From: a virus | Taxonomy: Duplodnaviria > Caudoviricetes | DNA length: 64,000 bases | Direction: 5' to 3' (one strand) | IMG/VR virus record: IMGVR_UViG_3300012007_000009 | Coordinates: 64,001-128,000 of that record | Shown: positions 11,314-64,000 of the stretch, piece by piece | Numbering within the stretch: the first letter of the stretch is position 1 | How the letters are laid out: every line of letters begins with the position of its first letter | Made by a program: the position numbers and the translations under genes | Notes under the pieces: model-generated | Told to the model about the DNA's origin: nothing | The model's database searches: none | The model's input: the letters and a program-made list of their open reading frames with translations, nothing else

Positions 11314-12001
11314 TGTTCATGTCCCTCATGATTGCGTCAATCTCGTCCATATTGATGTCCATCTCGTCGAAGTCTGGCTTCACGCTGTCGACTTCCTCGA
11401 CGACCTTCCTCACCTTGCCCTCGCCAAGGCACAGCGGGCATTCCTCCCCGTCTATCTCGCCCTCACCGTGGCATTCCGGGCAGGTAACCACGTCGTCGTG
11501 ACGGTCATCCCGGAGCTTCACCGGGTGCTTGGCAACATATTCCAGCTCCGCGTCGGAAATCCGGATGCCCTTCTCCTCGGCGACCTTCTGCTTGATGTCG
11601 TTCTCCAGGATTAGGCTGAACTTGATGGGGTCCACTGACGGCGCCAGGGTCATCAGTATGTCGAACATGCCGAATCCCGGGACCTCGTACTCCCTCCCGC
11701 TGCGGTCCACTCGCTTCACCGTACGCGCATACTTCTTGTAGGCGTTCCACAGGGCCAGATTGACCTTGTCCTTCGCCTTCTTGAGGTAGGTGTCGGGCAT
11801 CGTGAGGGTAATGCAGATGTCGCCCGGGAACCGCTGGGTCATCAGGAACTTGTTGATTTCCGCCGCTATGTCGTCGTTTCCGAGCTTTCCCTGCGCATCG
11901 GAGCCGGACGGCCCCATCTCGTCCCCGCGGTTGACGCCATCGGTTTCCTGGGGGTCGCCGGGAGACTGCTCGATATCGTCTTCTTCCATGCCGTAGTTCA
12001 T
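11306..12001 (-). CDS. Hypothetical protein with DnaJ-type zinc finger; possible gp33-like segment
   Basis: CPECHGEG...CPLCLGEG; KFSLILENDIKQKVAEE loosely resembles the gp33 core (weak). Confidence 0.6.
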   Translation of the reverse strand: MNYGMEEDDIEQSPGDPQETDGVNRGDEMGPSGSDAQGKLGNDDIAAEINKFLMTQRFPGDICITLTMPDTYLKKAKDKVNLALWNAYKKYARTVKRVDRSGREYEVPGFGMFDILMTLAPSVDPIKFSLILENDIKQKVAEEKGIRISDAELEYVAKHPVKLRDDRHDDVVTCPECHGEGEIDGEECPLCLGEGKVRKVVEEVDSVKPDFDEMDINMDEIDAIMRDMNNG

Positions 12002-21658: not shown

Positions 21659-24060
21659 ACTACGCGGCCCCTGTTCTTGAAAGGAATAGTTATCGTCTGC
21701 ACTTCGCCCGCGGGCACTATGACGCCGAGTATAAGGTAGATGCCGTTGGGACCGACATCCTCCACGCTGCACTGCTCGTACACCAGCCTAATCCTGGGCT
21801 CGTATTCCTGAATGGCGGCGAAGCACTCCTGCAGTATGTCGTTCTGGTACCCGCCGGTGCGTAGACTGAATATGCGCTCCTCGATGTTGGTACCGAATTC
21901 GGGGTTGAACAGCCGTTCGCCCTTCCGGGTGAGAAGGCAGCTGTACAGGTTCTGTATCATGCTGTTCTCGTCGGTAATCTCGGTGAATCCCTTGTAGCCG
22001 AAATCTCTGTTGTACGAGGCGCTTCGGCTTACATTGGCATCTATTACGCCGGGTTTCATCCGGTCGTTGAGCTTGACCACCCTGGGGACCACCACCAGGG
22101 CGTTGACGGTCGCGGTTTCGCTGCACGGTTCGGCAACCCCGGGAACCCAGTCGGAATTAGTGGGCTTCTTCATCACGGTCAGGCTTATGTTGCCGCCATA
22201 TCCCCGGGGCATCTCGAAAGTGAGCGTGGACCCGTCGTTCGTCCTGACCGGCACCCACTTTGCGGGGTCATCCTCGTTGCCGAGGCGCACCCGCATGTTA
22301 CCGGCAAGGAAATCGAACGAGGCGCTGTTCATCGACATCACGGAAACTACGTCGCCCGGGCTTATGACATCGGGCATGACCTTGACAGGGATGGGCACGA
22401 ACTCGCCGGAGTCCTCGCCGGCGGCGTACGTTATCCTGAAGCATGGCGTGCCCGGCCCTTCGGCCCCGAGCAGGACCTCGGCCCCGGTACGTCCATACAG
22501 GGTGAAGGCGAGCGACACCGGCCTACCGGTTGCGCACCACTTCTCGCTGGTGGACGAGGGTACCTCGAAGGTAAACACCCGGGCCTGGCTCTCGTAATCG
22601 CAGGTCTGCTCGTCCCCCTCGTCTGACTGTATGGGCATGCGGGCCAACGGGATGGCCGAAATCTTCTTGCTGACCGCAGTTGCGTTGTCGCCGGTATCCC
22701 AGAAACTGTCGGCAAGGGGAGACATGCATATGTCAGTGAGCACCTCGGTGCTGGCCTTGACCAGAACCTCCACCAGGAACTTCCTTCCCGTTCCCCCCTC
22801 GGCGGCTACCGGCGGGTTGAACTTTATGACGGCGAATTTCCCGTCGCAAACCGCAATCGTGCTACCGTCGACCCCGCCCCCCTTGTCCGGGTTGGCCAAG
22901 TCGAACGCCCCGTACAGTGACGGGTAGAGTATGACGGCTTCGTTCTCGATGGTGGAACCGTTGTTCACGCTCGGCTCGGTCGTGGCGTTCCTGGCGGGAG
23001 CCTTGAGAGTTCTACGGAGAAGCTTCTTGGTGGATACGGGAGGTTCCCGTTCCGGGTAAGGGCCGTAATTCGCCGGGACATCCTTGGCCGGCGTCCTGGG
23101 CGCGTAGGCGATTGAATCTATATCCAGCCCAAGGGCTATGTTCCTGCTGCGGCACACGAACGCATTGGCCGCGCCGCCATTCGCCGGCCTGATGTCGATT
23201 ACCGCGTTGGCTACTACGGTGGAGCCTCCCCTGCAGAGGGTAATCCTGTCCCCGTTCTTGAACGTATGTGCCGGCCATATGACGACCGCTTCGGACATTC
23301 CCGCGATGGCAGTTTTATCAACAAGATATTCACAAGTTATCCACTTTGTAGCAACAGCTAATTCACAATTCTCGTATTTAGTCGTCTGACAGCCGAACCC
23401 CGTGAAGAACCTGGTCCTGTAGGTGAACGAATTGTCCGCGGTCACCGAAACTCGGTAGGTCCCGTTGAACCTCTCCCCGGCAACGCCGCATGAATGGTCG
23501 GTCCTGGGAAACCCGCTCATGGTGACGGCATCGCCGTCGGCAAACCCGTGGTTTCCGCGGGTGACTACCGTCACCGTACCGGTAACCGGGTCGTATTCGG
23601 CGGACTCAATCGATACCGGCGGCAGCCTGCGTTCGATAAGCACGTTGACCGGTATGTTTCCCGAGGAATAAGTCCCGTTCAGCTTCGATTCACCGGAGAG
23701 CCTTACCGTTCTTCCCGAGGAATCCATGAACTCCAGCGAATGCTCGTACGTGTCCCCCGAGAACTCGCACACCACCTCCAGGTTGAAGGAGGAGTCGTGG
23801 GTCGAACCGGTAGTGTCGTTGTATGGGCGGCGGAACACCCCGTTCCAGTCATCGTAGGTCACCGTATCGCACGGGTTGGACGGTACCGCGTACACCCCGG
23901 TACCCGTGGCCGATGTGAGGTCGTTCATGCCGTCATACCTGAAGAATAGCCTGGCCCTGTACTCGCCCGGGTCTGGAACGTTGCCGGACATGCGCAGAGC
24001 GAAGACGTAATTCCCGGTATCCCCGGTATAGCCTGACATTTCCTCGATAACATTCAGCAT
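21655..24060 (-). CDS. Large protein with C-terminal gp25-like baseplate wedge domain
   Basis: MIQNLYSCLLTRKGERLFNPEFGT...IQEYEPRI is the gp25 signature; N-terminal part is beta-rich (NHGFADGDAVTMSG...FNGTY). Confidence 0.8.
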   Translation of the reverse strand: MLNVIEEMSGYTGDTGNYVFALRMSGNVPDPGEYRARLFFRYDGMNDLTSATGTGVYAVPSNPCDTVTYDDWNGVFRRPYNDTTGSTHDSSFNLEVVCEFSGDTYEHSLEFMDSSGRTVRLSGESKLNGTYSSGNIPVNVLIERRLPPVSIESAEYDPVTGTVTVVTRGNHGFADGDAVTMSGFPRTDHSCGVAGERFNGTYRVSVTADNSFTYRTRFFTGFGCQTTKYENCELAVATKWITCEYLVDKTAIAGMSEAVVIWPAHTFKNGDRITLCRGGSTVVANAVIDIRPANGGAANAFVCRSRNIALGLDIDSIAYAPRTPAKDVPANYGPYPEREPPVSTKKLLRRTLKAPARNATTEPSVNNGSTIENEAVILYPSLYGAFDLANPDKGGGVDGSTIAVCDGKFAVIKFNPPVAAEGGTGRKFLVEVLVKASTEVLTDICMSPLADSFWDTGDNATAVSKKISAIPLARMPIQSDEGDEQTCDYESQARVFTFEVPSSTSEKWCATGRPVSLAFTLYGRTGAEVLLGAEGPGTPCFRITYAAGEDSGEFVPIPVKVMPDVISPGDVVSVMSMNSASFDFLAGNMRVRLGNEDDPAKWVPVRTNDGSTLTFEMPRGYGGNISLTVMKKPTNSDWVPGVAEPCSETATVNALVVVPRVVKLNDRMKPGVIDANVSRSASYNRDFGYKGFTEITDENSMIQNLYSCLLTRKGERLFNPEFGTNIEERIFSLRTGGYQNDILQECFAAIQEYEPRIRLVYEQCSVEDVGPNGIYLILGVIVPAGEVQTITIPFKNRGRVV
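23315..23367 (+). repeat. Five DnaA-box-like 9-mers at exact 11-bp period
   Basis: TTATCAACA 23315, ATATTCACA 23326, TTATCCACT 23337, GTAGCAACA 23348, TAATTCACA 23359. Confidence 0.65.
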
Positions 24061-28796: not shown

Positions 28797-29789
28797 TTAT
28801 GTCTTTTCGGCCTTCCTGGCCTCCCTGAGGGCCGAATATGCCGATTTTACGGCCTCCCCGCCTTCTTCCGGGGCGAGCTCCACGTTCACCATGGCCTTCA
28901 GCCCGGTTCCGAACAGGTTCTCCACGGGATAGTCGTAGGCGAAGTCGGAAGTGCCTGGAGGCACGTCCACCGCCAGGAGCCTCCCGTATACGTCTATGTC
29001 GACGGCCGTCCCGAGGACGAAGTCCTCCGGGTGCACTCGGCGCGTTATCCTGATGAAAGGGAAGCCGTCGGGGGACATGAACGCCTCGATACCCCTCTCC
29101 TCGTCGGGCAGCGGGTTTATCTCGACCACCAGGTCGCCGTTAGGGCCCCCCTTCATGCCGTCGTTCCCCTTGCCGGTGGCCATTACCCTGGCCGTTCCCG
29201 GCGAAAGGTCGAACCCGTACTCGCATTCCCGCTCGGTCCTCCCCGTACCGTGGCACACCTGGCACTCCCCGGTGACCACGGTGCCCCTCCCGGAGCACCC
29301 CGGGCAGGTCTTCTCCTTCTTCCTGAACACAATCTTGCCGGTCGCCCCGCACCGGGGACAGTTCACCTGCTTCTCGCCGCCGATGCCGGAGCACATCAGG
29401 CACTCGCTTGACTTCGCGTACCTCACCGAAAGCCCGTACTTCCCGAATATGAAGGCTTCCATGGGCACGTTCTCCGTGACCTCTATGTCGGAACCGCGCT
29501 CGCCGCACCGGTCGTCCTCCGGCGGCTTGCCGAAGTTGCTGGCGACGTCGGATTTTCCGAACACCTGCTCCATCCAGGCGAACTTGACGGCGAACTCGTT
29601 GCCGTTCACGTACTTGCGCCGAAGCTCCGGTGTCTTTATTAGTGCGTACGCCTCGTTCAGCGCCGCCATGTCGTCCGGGTTTCCGCCGTGGTCCGGGTGG
29701 TACTTCCGGGAAAGCTCCTTGTATGCCCTGTGTATCTCGTCGTCGGTCGCGGTTGGCGGCACGCCCAGTATTCCGTATGCGTCTATCAT
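28797..29789 (-). CDS. dnaJ: DnaJ chaperone
   Basis: J domain with KYHPD, four CxxCxGxG-type repeats, C-terminal GGPNGDLVV. Confidence 0.9.
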   Translation of the reverse strand: MIDAYGILGVPPTATDDEIHRAYKELSRKYHPDHGGNPDDMAALNEAYALIKTPELRRKYVNGNEFAVKFAWMEQVFGKSDVASNFGKPPEDDRCGERGSDIEVTENVPMEAFIFGKYGLSVRYAKSSECLMCSGIGGEKQVNCPRCGATGKIVFRKKEKTCPGCSGRGTVVTGECQVCHGTGRTERECEYGFDLSPGTARVMATGKGNDGMKGGPNGDLVVEINPLPDEERGIEAFMSPDGFPFIRITRRVHPEDFVLGTAVDIDVYGRLLAVDVPPGTSDFAYDYPVENLFGTGLKAMVNVELAPEEGGEAVKSAYSALREARKAEKT

Positions 29790-42686: not shown

Positions 42687-43397
42687 ATGAGCATATACGT
42701 AGTAGGCGACACCAAGAAGATGTTCCCCGAACTCGACGAGGGCAGGGAGAAATTTCTCACAGATATGCCCCATGAAGGGGAAAACATAGACCGGCTGAAC
42801 AGGTGGTACTGCGAACTGACAGGATTGTACCATCTATGGAAGAACTCAGATTCATTCTACGTCGGATTGGAACATTACAGAAGGTTCTTCGAGTCTATAA
42901 AGAGTCCAAAACAGCGCATGAAGGTGGACGAAGCCCAGGAAATACTGGAAAAATGCGACATGATTGTCACAGAATATGACCATGGTCCAAGATATACGGC
43001 GCTCCAGTGGTTCAAGGACTCGAAATTTCAGGACGGGAGCAGCTACATACTCTACCTGGACAAGTTCATCGATGTCCTTGACGACAAGGACAAGGAAGGA
43101 TTCAAGGAATACCTCGGGAGGCACCGGCTGGTACAGTGCAACATGTTCATAGGGAAACGCCCTGTAATGGATAGGTGGTGCAAGTTCATCTTCAGCGTAC
43201 TGTCCAGGTACGACAAGTTATGCCCGCCGTCGCAGGCGCACGGGCGACTTCAGGGGTACTTCGCCGAGCACATATTCGGATACTGGCTGGAAAAGGAATC
43301 GGTGCCACTGTTCATGGCACCGAAAGTCGAAATGGAATACGTGGAAAGGAACGGGGTGTCCCCAGCCAGAGTAGGCTACTCTACCTCACGAGCTTGA
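42687..43397 (+). CDS. DUF4422-like glycosyltransferase-associated protein
   Basis: NRWYCELTGLYHLWKN, VGLEHYRRFF, CNMFI, RLQGYFAE. Confidence 0.8.
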   Translation: MSIYVVGDTKKMFPELDEGREKFLTDMPHEGENIDRLNRWYCELTGLYHLWKNSDSFYVGLEHYRRFFESIKSPKQRMKVDEAQEILEKCDMIVTEYDHGPRYTALQWFKDSKFQDGSSYILYLDKFIDVLDDKDKEGFKEYLGRHRLVQCNMFIGKRPVMDRWCKFIFSVLSRYDKLCPPSQAHGRLQGYFAEHIFGYWLEKESVPLFMAPKVEMEYVERNGVSPARVGYSTSRA

Positions 43398-46300
43398 TTG
43401 CGAGCATGTCACCATCTTCGATATCCTCAGCATCGGTGTCGATGACGTTATTGTCAACCGAGTACCCGCACAGGTCACCGTCATCATCGACACACCAGGC
43501 ATAGCATACATATTCCGAGTTAGGCGACATTGACCCGTCTACGTCGGCCTTGCCGGTAGGACTGAACCCGAGCTGCTTGGAAGCGATTGCTCCGGTATCC
43601 TGTCCCAGGTTATTGAGTTCTGTCACCGTAGGAAGGCGCCAACCGGTTGAGCCGAGCTGGGCCATGATGGCTTCGGCATCCTCCATGCTGTACAGCATCA
43701 CGTTCCTGGATGATTTCACCCCGGTTGCCCCGTCATAATACCCGGTCATCCACAGCAACCCGTTCGCCTCGTGGTATTCCACTTTCTTCCCGAGCTCGGC
43801 ACTGGCCATCGAGCCAGCATTTGCCGAGAATTCGCCACCCCTGCTGAAATACGGGGCCAGCATCTGCTTTACCCGCTCGGCCTCCCCGGAAGGCAGATTC
43901 TCGATAACGGAATTGATTTTTATCTCATGTGCCCTAACGAATTGCGTAGTGAACTCATCCCAACCGCCCATGGCGGCAAGCCGCAGAAGCAATTCCAGTC
44001 CTTCTGGAGTAGTACTCATGTCCCGTACAGTTTCCGGGGTGAAACACTTTTTGCAAACCTCATGGGCGATATTACCCGGCAACATGTTGATACAAGACAA
44101 TAGAACCATAGGCTTGTCCTTCAGAAGCTTTTCGATATCTTCAGTGGATATTACGGCAGGGTCATCTTTGGAAAGGCTCTTATCATATTTAGCTGATATA
44201 TCAAACAATGCCTTAGTCACCCTGTCTCCATGCAAGCTCAAGGATTTCCACTCAAAGTCGTCGACGCTCAGCACCAGATGTTGACCGGCTAAAATAGTCG
44301 CCACGACATCATTGAATGAGTTGGACTCGTAATACTCCTTTCCATAATGAGCCAATAGCTCCCACAATTCGTATGCTATGATGCATCGTGCTAGGACATC
44401 GTTCCGCATGGCCATCTTCTTTGAACCAGCCCCATTATCCACCAACGTTTGCTCATTGCAGCTAATTATCCCACCTCGCTTGCTATCCAGGAATATTTCC
44501 CTAGCAAGTCCCGAATCGGATTCATACAGGGACATATAACTGTCAAGCACTTGTTTTATGTATTCACCAACATAGTGAGTATTGTCACTCACCCTCGACG
44601 TACTAAAAGAAAAATTTCGTTTTAATGGCTTTATGTATGTCCTGAAATACGTTGTCAAGTCATCTGTCACCAACCCATTAATCAGCATAGAATGCCTTAA
44701 TGCATCAAACCTCCAGCCACCCGACTGTGGTTCATTTAACTTCAGGAAGGTCGACAATATCCGCTTTCCTAATGGGGAATTGCTCTCAACTTCCTTGACA
44801 ATGGAGCGACCAAGACACAGGTTGAGGAATAGCCTTAATGCATATTCGGTATTATTCGGGTAAGCAGTCAAAAATTCGCGTATTCTCCTGAGCAGCATGT
44901 TACCGGAGACCGAATCACGGTATTTGTTGATATCGTTCTCGTTGTTGTCCGGAACAATGTTACCATATAATTCAGAAGAAAATACCCTGAAACCAGGCAC
45001 AACACTCCCGAATCTGAGCAAGCACCGCTTGGCTGGGCCATTATCAATAGCATGGAGGAGTGTTTGCTGCACTCTGGGCGTCATGAATTTCTTTATATCC
45101 GAGAACAAGGCATCCCGTGACGCGGCATTCATGGAATTGGACCTCATTAAGCCATCGAAATAATTCATCAAGCGCAAACAATTATCTATCGCTCTGGTTC
45201 CAGAATCATTTAATGCATATTCAACAGCATCTTCGGATAACGGTATATATTGACCGGAAATGCCTATAGAAACACTCAACGCATCCATTAATGCATTGAT
45301 TCCACGTACTCGGAATATCGCCACCTGTACATTGGGTTCACGTAGCATTTTCGGTGAAAATGTATTGCTGAGGCTGTAGGCATTATCTGCTATTTCGGGC
45401 ATTTTCATGAAGTCAGCTACCCGGATGGTGGCATGTCCCGGTGTCCCGGTCAAAGCTTGGATTAGGCCATTGGGGTCATCGAAGGGTCTTAATATAGACA
45501 GTCCGATTATGTAATCAAATTCACCTGGATAGCCGGTGGATATTCCATATTTTTTGGCAATACTCATAATTTCAGGGTCATGTACAATGACCTTATTCTC
45601 CTTGACTGCCATCTCGACCCACTCGCTCAGGTCGTCGGAATCAACCAAGCCACGGTCGACACATGCAGCAAGAAATTGCAGTTCATTAAATCGCCCGAAA
45701 TACTCAGTACCGCTATAGATTTCATTCCATAAATTAGAAATAAACGTGTCCGGTCTCGACATACTCTTCTTCAGAATACGAACCCTATCATCCCAAGTAA
45801 GCTTGAACTGTAACTTCGACAAGTCGTCATTGCTTGGTGCGTCTTGCCATAGGCCTAAGCAGAAATCCGCTGTCAGGAAGTTGACAAAATCTTCGGCAAC
45901 CCTGTGACTTATTATTTGGGGGAACATAAAGACAATATCTTGAATGCGGTATGCGCCTTCATCTTCCATCAGGTCCAGTCTCATTATACTTACCCCGGAA
46001 CCAGGAACTAGATAGGCTTGTATGCGGTCATTTTCTTCCTTTACCCATTCGGTGCCATCCTCGTTTCTCAGCATCATTTGCATGCCTGCAGCTTCCCACG
46101 CCATTCCTCCTTTGCTATTTTTAACCGCGGTATCTGCGATATCAGATGTTGTAAAATTTTCCGTATCCGCCAATATCGTTTTTTCAAAGCGGTTGTTGTT
46201 TTTTGTCAGTTTCTCTATAAGGTCGTGTTCATTGAACAAAGACTGTATTTCATCGGCAAGAGCAACTCGGTCTATTTTATTCAACCTGGCGGTAAAGCTC

Positions 46301-46749
46301 TCGTTATCTGAACATGAGGACAAGTCTTTCAATATGGCCAATTTCAGTGCATTCTTTAGATTCTCTTCAACATTTCTGAAATTTGCGCTGTTCTTTACGT
46401 CCTGATACACCCATACAGGTTCACCACCATCATCCCTATAACGTAGGCCAAGTTCATCCATCGCCATATCCATGGAAGAATTTACCAGCATATCGACCTG
46501 CATAAACCTCGGGTCGCTATTCAACTTGCGTGCTATTGATGTGGTAGTGCTGCTCCCTTCACAATCCGTCGTATCTATGCCGAGAAACCTTGCCGCATCA
46601 TCGTACCTAAATGGCACCGGGCGTACCGAATTCCCGCTATTTCCCTCGAACAACACCCGGTATGCGCTTTCCACCAGGGTCATAATCCCGATATCAATAC
46701 CGCTCGATACCAATTCCTTGTAGTCTGAATTCGAAAACATCGGCAACAC
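43381..46749 (-). CDS. Large late protein with C-terminal FISUMP/DUF1566-like domain
   Basis: GLLWM...LYS...GWRLPTVTELNNL...GFSPTG...AIKLVR; N-terminal VESAYRVLFEG; start may be ATG 46740. Confidence 0.75.
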   Translation of the reverse strand: MLPMFSNSDYKELVSSGIDIGIMTLVESAYRVLFEGNSGNSVRPVPFRYDDAARFLGIDTTDCEGSSTTTSIARKLNSDPRFMQVDMLVNSSMDMAMDELGLRYRDDGGEPVWVYQDVKNSANFRNVEENLKNALKLAILKDLSSCSDNESFTARLNKIDRVALADEIQSLFNEHDLIEKLTKNNNRFEKTILADTENFTTSDIADTAVKNSKGGMAWEAAGMQMMLRNEDGTEWVKEENDRIQAYLVPGSGVSIMRLDLMEDEGAYRIQDIVFMFPQIISHRVAEDFVNFLTADFCLGLWQDAPSNDDLSKLQFKLTWDDRVRILKKSMSRPDTFISNLWNEIYSGTEYFGRFNELQFLAACVDRGLVDSDDLSEWVEMAVKENKVIVHDPEIMSIAKKYGISTGYPGEFDYIIGLSILRPFDDPNGLIQALTGTPGHATIRVADFMKMPEIADNAYSLSNTFSPKMLREPNVQVAIFRVRGINALMDALSVSIGISGQYIPLSEDAVEYALNDSGTRAIDNCLRLMNYFDGLMRSNSMNAASRDALFSDIKKFMTPRVQQTLLHAIDNGPAKRCLLRFGSVVPGFRVFSSELYGNIVPDNNENDINKYRDSVSGNMLLRRIREFLTAYPNNTEYALRLFLNLCLGRSIVKEVESNSPLGKRILSTFLKLNEPQSGGWRFDALRHSMLINGLVTDDLTTYFRTYIKPLKRNFSFSTSRVSDNTHYVGEYIKQVLDSYMSLYESDSGLAREIFLDSKRGGIISCNEQTLVDNGAGSKKMAMRNDVLARCIIAYELWELLAHYGKEYYESNSFNDVVATILAGQHLVLSVDDFEWKSLSLHGDRVTKALFDISAKYDKSLSKDDPAVISTEDIEKLLKDKPMVLLSCINMLPGNIAHEVCKKCFTPETVRDMSTTPEGLELLLRLAAMGGWDEFTTQFVRAHEIKINSVIENLPSGEAERVKQMLAPYFSRGGEFSANAGSMASAELGKKVEYHEANGLLWMTGYYDGATGVKSSRNVMLYSMEDAEAIMAQLGSTGWRLPTVTELNNLGQDTGAIASKQLGFSPTGKADVDGSMSPNSEYVCYAWCVDDDGDLCGYSVDNNVIDTDAEDIEDGDMLAIKLVR

Positions 46750-52051: not shown

Positions 52052-52990
52052 CTAGCGGAAGAACTTCTGGTTCCTGGGGGCGACCCCGCCGTTGCGGGTG
52101 GACATGTTCCCGTACCCGGCGTTGTTCAGGAGTTCGTCGGCAAGGGCGTCATAGTCGACGTCGGCATCGTTGGCCTCCGTCCCGGGACGGCCTTCGTCCG
52201 CGCCGTCGTTACGGTAATCCTTCAGCTCGTCGGAATTCCAGAGGGAGATGTAGTCGTCGAGGTTCCTGTCCGCTTCATCGTCATCCAGCTCGCGACGGCG
52301 CTGCTCGTCGAACGCGCTGTCGTACTCGGCGTCGATGTCGCGTGCCGGGTGGTCGAAGTCGATGTCGCGTTCGCCGTTGTCGTCGTACGGGCGGAGCAGG
52401 TCGGACTCGCCCTCGTCAGCGTTGCCGAAGAGGTTGCTGGAACGGCTCTCGGTCAGCTCGTTCCCCTTCCCTTTCTTGCCCTTGCCCGCTTTCTGGCACT
52501 GGGTATCGGCAGGCGCCGCGTTGGGTTCGCCGCAGTCGCATTCCTCTTCTACCGGTACGCATTCCCCGTCGACGCACTTCGTGCCGGCGGGGCACTCGTC
52601 GTCACCGTCGCATTCGCCGTCGTCATCGCCGGCCTCCTCGGCACCGCACTCGTCATCTTCCCCCGACGAGAACGGGTTCTCGCCGGCATTCACCTTGTCG
52701 TCGAAGTTCTTGAGGAAGCCCTCGAGAACGGTCTGCTCCTCGGAGTCCAGGTGCGGGAGGAACGCCTGCAGGAGGCCGCTGACGGCATCCTTGATTTTGT
52801 CGGCGGTCAGCGGGCCGTCGGCAGCCTCGAACTGTGGCTTCCTGGCGGGCCTGATGTACCCTTCCTTGACTGCGAAGTTGTACTTGAAACGGTCGATTGC
52901 GTCGTCGTTGCTGCCGTTCTTCAGGGAATCGGCGAAATCCATGTACGCCTCGAATGCCGCGGGGCCGAGCGTGCGATGTGTCCTGGCCAT
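52052..52990 (-). CDS. Acidic late protein with Cys-rich patch
   Basis: TATAAACT at 53024-53031, GAGG RBS; motifs AFEA, QFEA, VLEG, LTES; CDGDDECPAGTKCVDGEC. Confidence 0.75.
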   Translation of the reverse strand: MARTHRTLGPAAFEAYMDFADSLKNGSNDDAIDRFKYNFAVKEGYIRPARKPQFEAADGPLTADKIKDAVSGLLQAFLPHLDSEEQTVLEGFLKNFDDKVNAGENPFSSGEDDECGAEEAGDDDGECDGDDECPAGTKCVDGECVPVEEECDCGEPNAAPADTQCQKAGKGKKGKGNELTESRSSNLFGNADEGESDLLRPYDDNGERDIDFDHPARDIDAEYDSAFDEQRRRELDDDEADRNLDDYISLWNSDELKDYRNDGADEGRPGTEANDADVDYDALADELLNNAGYGNMSTRNGGVAPRNQKFFR

Positions 52991-62444: not shown

Positions 62445-64000
62445 ATGCGAAATCAACGACTAGCGGTCAACTGCCTTGTCCAGGTGAATTCGGACAACCG
62501 CCTCGACTTCGAGGAATGGCTCAACTACCATATCGCGCTCGGCTTCGACACGATTTTTGTCTGTGACAACGGCAACCACTCCTGGCTCGACGAGGTGTGC
62601 GAGAAGCGCCGCGAGCATGTCACGCTCGCTCCCCGTGACGAAAGGTGGGCGTTCAAGAGCGAGATTATACAGGATTACGTGTCCCGCCGGGAATTCGAGG
62701 AATGGTGCATCTGCATGGACGAGCACGACTTCCTGTGGATTTCTCCGGCAAGGGCCAAGAGCATCACCGAGTATGCCGATACCATACCCGGTACCGTGGC
62801 GGCAGTGACGTTCTACGTCAAGCACATGTCCTCCAAGGAACCTACCAGGTACCGCGTGGGAACCCAGATGGACTGCTTCACCCATACCAGGAGGGAACCG
62901 GAAGGATTCCTCCCCATGTACAAGGCCCTACCCAACACGGGTATTACAATGTTCAGGGTATCCAGCCAGAACATGCCGCTGCGAGACCCGGTGACCCCGG
63001 TATACATCAACAACTGGGTCGATTCGGAATTCCGCCAGATGACGCCCGATAGGTTCAAGTCCGAGACTACTTCTCGCAGGTTCTACCCGACCGCTTACTC
63101 CGTCCGCTGTTACCGGTATGCAATCCGCTCGGGCGTCGAGATGGGGTTCGACGACAAGATGGTTCCCGTCGGCTTCGATGTGCAGGACCTCAACATGCAG
63201 AAGGCCAGGGAGATGTACATGCATATCCCGGTGAATCCGGAAACCGAGACACTGTTCGCGAAGGCCGAACCGCCCGAGGCCGTGCAGGAACCGGGAAGCC
63301 CGAAATCCGTGTCGGTCGTGGCTGCCGAGTCAGGTCTTCCCATCACTCGTGCCAGGATTGACAAGCTCATATTCAAGGGACAGTTCCTCGAGGACATAAT
63401 GAAGTATGTCGAGGAGAAGGACCCGAATTACGACAGGGCCCTGCTCGAAAGCATGTTCGAGGATGAGCGCAAGAATATCGTGGCCACGTCGAGCCTCTAT
63501 ACGGAGATGCAGGAGATGCTGGACCAGGGCAAGGACGATGCCGAAATCCGGCGTACGCTGGTGCTCACCGAGACCACCTACAATCGTATGAAGGCTGCCT
63601 TGCCTGTTCTCGACATCAAGACCAAGTATGCCGACATGGTCGAGGAATCGGCTGGTGGCGACACTTCAATCCAGGTGAAGGTGGGTGCCGCCGTTCCCGT
63701 ACAGGAACACGGGGATTCCGAGATTGAGAGCCTGGTTGACACATTCGAGGCGGACCAGGAGGTCAACGCTCCGACTGCCGAGGAACTGGCTACCAGGGAG
63801 GAAGCGGTCGCCATGCTGGCAGTCAAGGAAAAGCCGAAGGGCAAGGGCAGGACGTCCAAGAAGGAGACACCCAAGAAGGACACCGCCAAGAAGAAGGTCA
63901 AGGCTGCGGTGGTTGCAGGTACCGCAAAGAAGGTCGGCGGGAAAACCGGCAAGGCGGAAACGCCCGAAATGGCCAAGGATGCCGCAACCGAGGAGCTGGA
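62445..64000 (+). CDS. GT2/GT92-like glycosyltransferase with extended acidic/Lys-rich C-terminus (runs off the window)
   Basis: Not in the ORF track; translated by hand from ATG 62445 (GAGG RBS): FEEWLNYHIALGFDTIFVCDNG...WCICMDEHDFLW. Confidence 0.75.
   Translation, partial: MRNQRLAVNCLVQVNSDNRLDFEEWLNYHIALGFDTIFVCDNGNHSWLDEVCEKRREHVTLAPRDERWAFKSEIIQDYVSRREFEEWCICMDEHDFLWISPARAKSITEYADTIPGTVAAVTFYVKHMSSKEPTRYRVGTQMDCFTHTRREPEGFLPMYKALPNTGITMFRVSSQNMPLRDPVTPVYINNWVDSEFRQMTPDRFKSETTSRRFYPTAYSVRCYRYAIRSGVEMGFDDKMVPVGFDVQDLNMQKAREMYMHIPVNPETETLFAKAEPPEAVQEPGSPKSVSVVAAESGLPITRARIDKLIFKGQFLEDIMKYVEEKDPNYDRALLESMFEDERKNIVATSSLYTEMQEMLDQGKDDAEIRRTLVLTETTYNRMKAALPVLDIKTKYADMVEESAGGDTSIQVKVGAAVPVQEHGDSEIESLVDTFEADQEVNAPTAEELATREEAVAMLAVKEKPKGKGRTSKKETPKKDTAKKKVKAAVVAGTAKKVGGKTGKAETPEMAKDAATEEL

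Follow-up and report, generated by a model that had tools for sequence, protein, structure and literature searches.

A short AT-rich patch within a baseplate gene of a rumen jumbo phage holds five co-oriented 9-mers that resemble DnaA boxes and recur with an exact 11-bp period. From the comparison of related sequences we conclude that this patch is a real DNA-level signal, laid over a structural gene and selected at silent sites. The phage is T4-type and lytic as described, and the patch was analysed in a stretch of 64,000 nt (the window), which comprises bases 64,001-128,000 of a 160,790-bp virus record (genome G000 below; GC 0.54; 44% complete by CheckV). We tentatively read the patch as a cooperative array for host DnaA that would affect the DnaA pool or transcription nearby and not serve as the main origin, a reading that we regard as plausible if short of probable. 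Table 1 collects the coordinates, which are those of the window unless another sequence is named.

A phased array of 9-mers in an AT-rich codon patch

All five 9-mers lie on the plus strand, and each is followed by a 2-bp spacer. Boxes 1, 2, 3 and 5 are one mismatch away from the DnaA consensus TTWTNCACA and box 4 is three mismatches away by our own count, so that the array is, by its sequence, a DnaA-box cluster of co-oriented, near-consensus 9-mers 2-3 bp apart. On the coding strand, the units read TGTGAATTA, TGTTGCTAC, AGTGGATAA, TGTGAATAT and TGTTGATAA, and relative to the peptide NCELAVATKWITCEYLVDK they occupy three different reading frames. The core formed by boxes 1-3 reads GTGGATA nnn TGTGAATAT nnT GTTGATA on that strand. 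Boxes 2 and 5, and likewise boxes 1 and 4, are spaced 33 bp (11 codons) apart, at the peptide motif CE.xV.

The array coincides with an abrupt change of composition. Only 4 of the 24 patch codons end in G or C, against a GC content at third codon positions (GC3) of 0.763 for the whole gene (binomial 1.2e-9), and codon positions 1 and 2 are also shifted towards AT (GC12 0.375 vs 0.506). Over 100 bp, GC falls to 0.42 at the patch vs ~0.6 around it, and ~0.6 is regained within 40 bp on both sides. A sequence-only reading of the window had reported five 9-mers at these positions with an 11-bp period, four of them one mismatch from the consensus and the fourth weaker, in an abrupt AT-rich patch with A/T-ending codons and with no long unwinding element adjacent; each of these observations is borne out by our analysis, and the 2-bp spacing, which it had taken for the geometry of cooperative DnaA binding, fits the spacing known for DnaA (PMC11317965).

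The phased array is far beyond chance. When the 65-bp core was shuffled 200,000 times with its dinucleotides preserved, three or more phased boxes never arose. When the peptide was held fixed, four phased boxes arose in 0 of 20,000 recodings with the codon usage of the gene, and in 57 of 20,000 (0.3%) when A/T-ending codons were used at the observed rate. Thus, the peptide permits the boxes while the choice of codons realises all of them, and composition alone is no explanation.

The core occurs once in the 160-kb record and, among viral contigs (exact-pattern scans of IMG/VR), it is confined to the orthologous gene. The 7-mer TAT[CT][CA]AC, required three times in 11-bp phase, finds only the orthologous site in both G000 and the patch-bearing relative G001 (IMGVR_UViG_3300031993_000006; 260 kb; 91% complete). 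A second copy or complementary partner was not found in the 160-kb record, where the best other match agrees at 17/24 positions and is intergenic; further arrays, for which a genome scan had been proposed, were likewise absent from this record. Tandem Repeats Finder returned no row for the array, the units being too divergent. The sole other dense cluster of the record consists of four loose, unphased DnaA-like 9-mers (around ~144,897) in a T-rich intergenic stretch upstream of a highly conserved gene, whose G001 counterpart is 95% identical; the stretch probably serves as a promoter region.

The C-terminus of the carrier gene product, P0001, is a gp25/W-type baseplate wedge domain (Pfam GPW_gp25, residues 700-760, E 1.5e-7), and its N-terminal part is a beta-rich extension in an AlphaFold model (mean predicted local distance difference test score, pLDDT, 78.7). 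In this model, the patch encodes the first strands (E228-230, E236-242 and E245-247) of a beta domain at residues 228-320, which follows a related domain at residues 149-215. These two tandem domains share a H-x-F-xx-GD-x-(I/V)T motif near residues 171 and 265. The extension that precedes the wedge domain spans ~650 residues, making P0001 far larger than a free-standing gp25/W wedge protein (the Pfam GPW_gp25 model has 96 positions), and the linkers at 334-361 and 664-699 are modelled with pLDDT <50.

Conservation of the core at silent sites

Protein searches gave a family of 22 relatives, and DNA was compared for 10 of these, a set to which the 80%-identical P0003 does not belong. The test of silent-site conservation covers four independent lineages. 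The core is kept, including its silent positions, in L010 (96% protein identity), L011 (56%), L012 (54%) and L025/L026 (52%), and in codons it reads TGG ATA nnn TGT GAA TAT nnT GTT GAT A(A/G)A. The patch stands out from its gene in the relatives as well: in L011, GC3 is 0.84 for the gene and 5/24 in the patch. Identical residues share the same A/T-ending codon in 11/14, 12/12 and 7/9 cases within the patch, vs 4-9% elsewhere in the gene (Fisher 2.7e-6 to 1.1e-16 for the contrast between the patch and the rest of the gene).

The patch is the best segment of P0001 for codon identity. In a genome-wide scan of 61 orthologous gene pairs between G000 and G001, in which 31,921 scan windows were evaluated, no other island of shared A/T-ending codons is as significant (p 1.2e-6; next island 3e-4). 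When the window is compared with the 95%-identical L010, substitutions crowd both edges and a 59-nt run over the array is spared (P ~0.04).

Within the patch, the pattern of conservation follows the repeat. Each 11-bp unit has ~8 kept positions and 3 free ones, and the only fully variable codon, codon 242 (ACT, ACC, GTC or GTA), falls in a spacer. Where residues change (A/I/L235 and L/S/I246), the third-position T that opens the next unit is nevertheless kept. The codon for Lys/Arg239 is AAG or CGG, and the G that it retains completes GTGGATA, even though a change from AAG to AAA would be silent. These details point to a constraint at the level of individual letters, beyond codon class. The contrast between silent positions in boxes and in spacers, taken over the four lineages, gives ~0.08 by our own count and is not significant alone.

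The expectation that the 9-mers would be held at synonymous sites in related phages was therefore answered in two parts: boxes 1-3 are kept silently in all four lineages and appear to be conserved independently of the protein code, while boxes 4-5 are lineage-specific, with such conservation in only part of the clade, and the distant homologues lack the element. The more general proposal, a DNA-level signal overlaid on a structural gene, is upheld by the silent-site conservation inside the clade, where patch-bearing lineages share only 51-56% protein identity.

A candidate array for host DnaA

A search for the DNA-binding domain of DnaA (domain IV) among the phage proteins found none in G000 or in the 91%-complete G001, and any DnaA that binds the array would thus be that of the host. 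The host is probably Fibrobacter, judging from the IS1595 transposase in the window, relatives of which are found at 82-84% identity in metagenome-assembled genomes of ruminant Fibrobacter. In each of five Fibrobacter genomes there are two DnaA paralogues, both of them full-length and composed of N-terminal, AAA+ and C-terminal DNA-binding domains (DnaA_N, AAA+ and Bac_DnaA_C). The paralogues measure ~443 and ~487-500 residues, and box-like sites lie upstream of each.

Several of these upstream sites resemble the phage boxes. The dnaA1 promoters of Fibrobacter contain an inverted pair, TTATCAACA ... TGTTGATAG, and TGTGGATAG stands at the equivalent place in one species (G010), so the two forms appear to be interchangeable. 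Both forms of box 1 in the phages, TTATCAACA and CTATCAACA, occur in dnaA1 promoters. Three species share a conserved block upstream of dnaA2 that contains GTTGATA nnn TGTG, two co-oriented box-like sites with an 11-bp step, and a GTTGATAnnnTGTG pair is also among the sites upstream of the paralogues. All 6 of the 6 occurrences of TGTTGATA in 58 kb of Fibrobacter DNA fall in dnaA upstream regions, and the 3.2 kb around dnaA2 of G011 contain six perfect canonical boxes, vs ~0.2 expected by our own estimate. Box 1 of the phage would thus be of a type that the presumed host uses beside dnaA. A comparison with the oriC boxes of the host had been proposed together with the array; in ours, the same box variants occur upstream of the dnaA genes of the presumed host, a blastn search with the patch as a whole did not reach significance, and we regard the result as suggestive and not significant alone.

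If the array is read in this way, a conserved cis-acting element in codons 231-250 would consist of co-oriented 9-bp sites whose 2-bp spacers place all of them on one helix face, and host DnaA would bind them cooperatively. DnaA-ATP would first occupy the best site, box 3 (TTATCCACT), and then spread to the weaker boxes 2 and 1, and in this lineage also to boxes 4 and 5, much as happens on oriC's low-affinity arrays and at 'double DnaA boxes'. Each replicated phage genome would contribute one array, and the element might consequently load or soak up host DnaA during amplification, in a datA-like manner. Alternatively, bound DnaA could serve as a local regulator or as a roadblock in the late baseplate operon. 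We infer both the identity of the binder and the effect of binding from sequence. The broader proposition, that a clade of rumen jumbo phages wrote a DnaA array into the silent positions of a baseplate gene as a datA-like sink or sensor or as a loader for an auxiliary origin, seems to us possible, with doubt prevailing.

A main replication origin at the array is unlikely. The flanks show no unwinding element and no DnaA-trio repeats, and a check of GC skew, also proposed earlier, found no switch at the array, the cumulative skew of the window having its minimum near 54-55 kb; a bacterial-type origin would be expected to combine such features. An iteron origin of the lambda or plasmid type does not fit either, the carrier gene being that of a baseplate protein, and Pfam found no replication domains in the genes neighbouring P0001.

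A number of observations weigh against DnaA as the binder. Four further homologues at 27-50% identity (L013, L014, L003 and L018) lack the element and have ordinary GC3 there (13-15/24), and the element therefore belongs to one clade. L025/L026 are without boxes 4-5 (units 1-2 of the coding strand), yet 7/8 codons there are A/T-ending; AT-richness itself is thus also kept, and a pure box model predicts otherwise. The first T of the boxes varies among relatives, and boxes 1 and 4 have A at position 6, which in canonical DnaA boxes is an almost invariant C. At Val247, the preferred codon GTG would make a perfect TGTGGATAA, and all lineages keep GTT. DnaA-like 9-mers are not enriched across the window (56 observed vs 68.6 expected) or genome-wide, and the 33-bp spacing of boxes 2 and 5 matches an 11-residue peptide repeat, CE.xV. 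The host is assigned from a single transposase. When the patch was compared by unbiased blastn with 74 kb of Fibrobacter DNA, no match was significant (best E 0.08), and dnaA-upstream matches made up three of the top 25. Finally, T4-type phages carry their own replication machinery and are not known to use DnaA.

The array is of interest mainly because silent positions in a late gene appear to encode sites for a host factor. Should DnaA bind, a lytic T4-type phage would exploit the initiator of its host by way of a site concealed in codons, a layer of cross-talk invisible to annotation based on open reading frames (ORFs), and the same 60 bases would specify three beta strands and a protein-binding array, a case of dual coding in which selection is measurable at silent sites. 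Whatever the binder, the patch shows the strongest silent-site constraint found between two jumbo phage genomes, G000 and G001, and comparative codon analysis offers an entry point to cis-acting sites in uncultivated phages.

Alternative explanations

The sites may be read by some other sequence-specific protein (a phage iteron initiator, a regulator, P0024 or a host factor), or the patch may act as an AT-rich structural element such as a melted or bent auxiliary origin of the T4 type, in which case the likeness to DnaA boxes would be coincidental. Eight conserved and three variable bases at an exact 11-bp period are a general signature of proteins stacked on one helix face, and the 11-bp parC iterons of plasmid R1 are an example of such phased-stacking sites. 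The freedom of box position 1 and the A at position 6 of two boxes agree with another binder, the AT-richness that outlasts the lost boxes agrees with either form of this explanation, and T4 origins do sit inside or next to structural genes (PMC3016281). Nevertheless, we consider it unlikely. No partner was identified. P0024, a five-helix-turn-helix (HTH) protein with one sub-threshold HTH_17 match in Pfam, had been put forward as an alternative binder; it is equally present in the patch-bearing G001 and G002 and in the patch-less G003 and G004 (55% identity), which argues against this assignment. A partition-type binder fares no better: ParB_N and StbA/ParM had no match in G000 or in G001, although the ParM search is weak, being empty in all control genomes as well, and the array has 5 units and not the two sets of 5 of an R1 parC-type centromere. 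An auxiliary origin would have to do without a sigma-70-type promoter, since neither such a promoter nor a terminator was found in 23000-23700, without an ATAAACT-like late-promoter motif conserved in the patch and without a switch in GC skew. The lack of a second array copy in 160 kb also speaks against another binder.

It is doubtful, too, that the patch is a signal in the mRNA or in translation. Here, unpreferred codons would slow the ribosome so that the first of the tandem beta domains folds before its twin, or an unstructured AU-rich stretch would offer an entry for RNase or a site for a protein or small RNA. By the usage of the phage, most of the patch codons rank low among their synonyms (TTA 0.04, GCT 0.14, ACA 0.14, GTT 0.16, AAA 0.20 and TGT 0.27), as is AGA (0.06), which the relatives have at codon 249. 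According to the structural model, the patch begins ~15 codons past domain 149-215, about one exit-tunnel length behind its last strands, and the motif shared by the two flanking domains would suit a folding pause; codons that stay A/T-ending in L025/L026 where the boxes are lost would suit it as well. In 21,483 codons from Fibrobacter ORFs, however, most of the patch codons are common: GAA is used at 0.78, GAT at 0.58 and AAT and TAT at 0.50, CTT is the commonest Leu codon, GTT and GCT are each second of four, and only ATA, TTA, ACA and ACT are rare. The patch codons are thus not rare relative to the presumed supply of the host, and the bias is one towards A/T endings and not towards slow codons. 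Moreover, the four homologues without the cluster have the same domain layout, and the codon for Lys/Arg239 keeps its common G-ending form in all lineages. With host-common codons and homologues that lack the cluster, we rank a translational role below a DNA-level one. An RNA signal finds no better footing, since the mRNA fold at the patch is unremarkable (z -0.27), Rfam gives no match at E up to 1, and no complementary sequence occurs elsewhere in the record; by these tests the patch is neither a structured RNA nor a member of a known RNA family.

That the patch has no selected function at all is very unlikely. A local C-to-T/G-to-A mutation bias that acts in parallel in related phages, for example in an often single-stranded stretch, or a short piece spread by gene conversion would then account for the AT-rich codons, and the boxes would follow from these together with the 11-residue repeat. 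Nearly every patch codon can indeed be reached from the preferred codon of the phage by transitions alone, the AT shift extends to codon positions 1 and 2, the paired boxes recur every 11 codons at CE.xV, and G000 has further AT-rich codon patches within GC3-rich genes. These other patches, however, share no motif, and none is comparably conserved against G001. The patch of the window is ~75% identical to that of L011 with non-synonymous differences that lie in the spacers, and thus is no recent transfer. In the remainder of the gene, silent sites have reached saturation. Any such bias would also have to leave the G of codon 239 in place and account for the substitution-free run against L010, and if it were fixed at the same 60 bp in four lineages it would itself imply a DNA-level feature.

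An antisense or alternative-frame gene was rejected, as antisense open stretches are expected in a GC3-rich gene and the constraint covers only ~60 nt.

Neighbouring and other features

Table 1. Coordinates of the array, its carrier gene and other features named in the text
Feature	Position	Strand	Remarks
Baseplate gene P0001	21655..24060	-	801 aa; from ORF list and translation
AT-rich codon patch	23311..23382	.	codons 227-250; TKYENCELAVATKWITCEYLVDKT; GC3 4/24
Conserved core, boxes 1-3	23314..23345	+	TTATCAACA ag ATATTCACA ag TTATCCACT
Box 1	23315..23323	+	TTATCAACA; reads CTATCAACA in L011, L012 and L025
Box 2	23326..23334	+	ATATTCACA; invariant in all six patch-bearing sequences
Box 3	23337..23345	+	TTATCCACT; nearest to canonical TTATCCACA; relatives have TTATCCACC or CTATCCACT
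Box 4	23348..23356	+	GTAGCAACA; weak; partly kept in L011 and L012 (GTACCAACA); degraded in L025/L026
Box 5	23359..23367	+	TAATTCACA; TTCACA part kept in L010, L011 and L012; lost in L025/L026
P0024	5761-7791		five-HTH protein
DnaJ-type co-chaperone	28797-29789	-	operon upstream of baseplate genes
1122-aa ORF	43381-46749	-	GC 0.44-0.45
Other AT-rich codon patches	G000:C1:18684-18791, 52605-52712, 11355-11462, 62624-62731		in GC3-rich genes
T-rich intergenic stretch	G000:C1:144860-144960		upstream of gene 145022-146515
tRNA genes	G001 189868-202940		24 genes
Fibrobacter dnaA locus	L066:7711-9042	+	
Fibrobacter dnaA locus	L069:6531-7994	+	
Fibrobacter dnaA locus	L070:7282-8784	+	

The operon upstream of the baseplate genes encodes a DnaJ-type co-chaperone with a J domain (E 7.6e-15), a CXXCXGXG zinc centre and a DnaJ C-terminal domain; DnaK and DnaJ act on several replication initiators. 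The ORF of 1122 residues, whose neighbours have a GC of ~0.55 and whose counterpart in G001 is 26% identical, is perhaps a fast-evolving or swapped-in late gene for a fibre or receptor-binding protein. Of the other AT-rich codon patches, that at 18.7 kb specifies the sequence GLYIAEGN, a LAGLIDADG-like motif that suggests an intein or homing-endonuclease insert. The 160-kb G000 record has none of the tRNA genes seen in G001, which agrees with a fragment that is 44% complete. No similarity to known phages was found at the DNA level, and a search of genome contigs for the baseplate protein gave no match.

Comparison with known systems

Among codon-level signals, the patch resembles the conserved rare-codon clusters linked with co-translational folding, in that it is a position-specific run of unpreferred codons, kept in homologues and placed soon after a domain boundary. 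It departs from them in that its codons are mostly common in the putative host, that it is absent from homologues of the same fold, and that letters and not only the codon class are kept.

The origin of lambda lies in gene O with phased direct repeats, and origins of the lambda type sit in the gene of their own initiator. In T4, oriG lies in gene 34 and oriF at uvsY, and their minimal elements of ~100 bp combine a middle promoter with an A+T-rich unwinding element (PMC3016281). The array resembles these origins as a cis element of at most ~100 bp with an A+T-rich part on or near coding sequence. Unlike at oriF and oriG, no middle promoter was found at the array, nor a skew switch or unwinding tract.

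A second group of comparisons concerns loci that act on the DnaA pool, through titration or nucleotide state, and not on initiation: datA and DARS of E. coli and the DnaA-box clusters of Bacillus subtilis (PMC5742627, PMC5835720). Like these, the array is a small group of boxes away from the origin, and a datA-like sink is what the sequence-only reading had put forward for it, next to recruitment of DnaA for a first replication round. These loci are chromosomal and non-coding, whereas the array lies in codons. datA also requires an IHF site between its boxes (PMC5742627, PMC5835720), and the array offers only a resemblance at 23316, where TATCAACAAGATA, one base off WATCAANNNNTTR, overlaps box 1.

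In its geometry, the array comes close to the oriC arrays and 'double DnaA boxes' of E. coli. E. coli DnaA prefers co-oriented pairs of boxes 2-3 bp apart, in which a degenerate box often accompanies a strong one (PMC11317965), and the low-affinity arrays of oriC obey the same spacing rule (PMC11317965; Stringer, Fitzgerald and Wade 2024). The phage array likewise has co-oriented 9-mers with 2-bp gaps and a near-consensus site with weaker neighbours (1-3 off TTATCCACA). The E. coli arrays are occupied cooperatively, as the phage array would be; unlike those of oriC, it is placed inside a structural ORF, without an unwinding element, DnaA-trios or a flanking perfect box of high affinity.

A precedent among phages is found in the T5-like lytic phages. 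Eight DnaA boxes, arranged in pairs, are conserved in their injection-stop (iss) region, and half of these are variants, TTATCAACA for example (Davison 2020, bioRxiv 10.1101/866236). These boxes are thought to be unrelated to replication, and their role is a hypothesis (bioRxiv 10.1101/866236). In T5 the boxes form inverted-repeat pairs with 3-bp spacing within a large untranslated terminal repeat, whereas the present array consists of direct repeats with 2-bp spacing, in codons and in single copy. What the T5-like phages provide is the case of lytic phages that encode replication genes of their own and conserve boxes in a precise, closely spaced arrangement, the variant found as box 1 among them.

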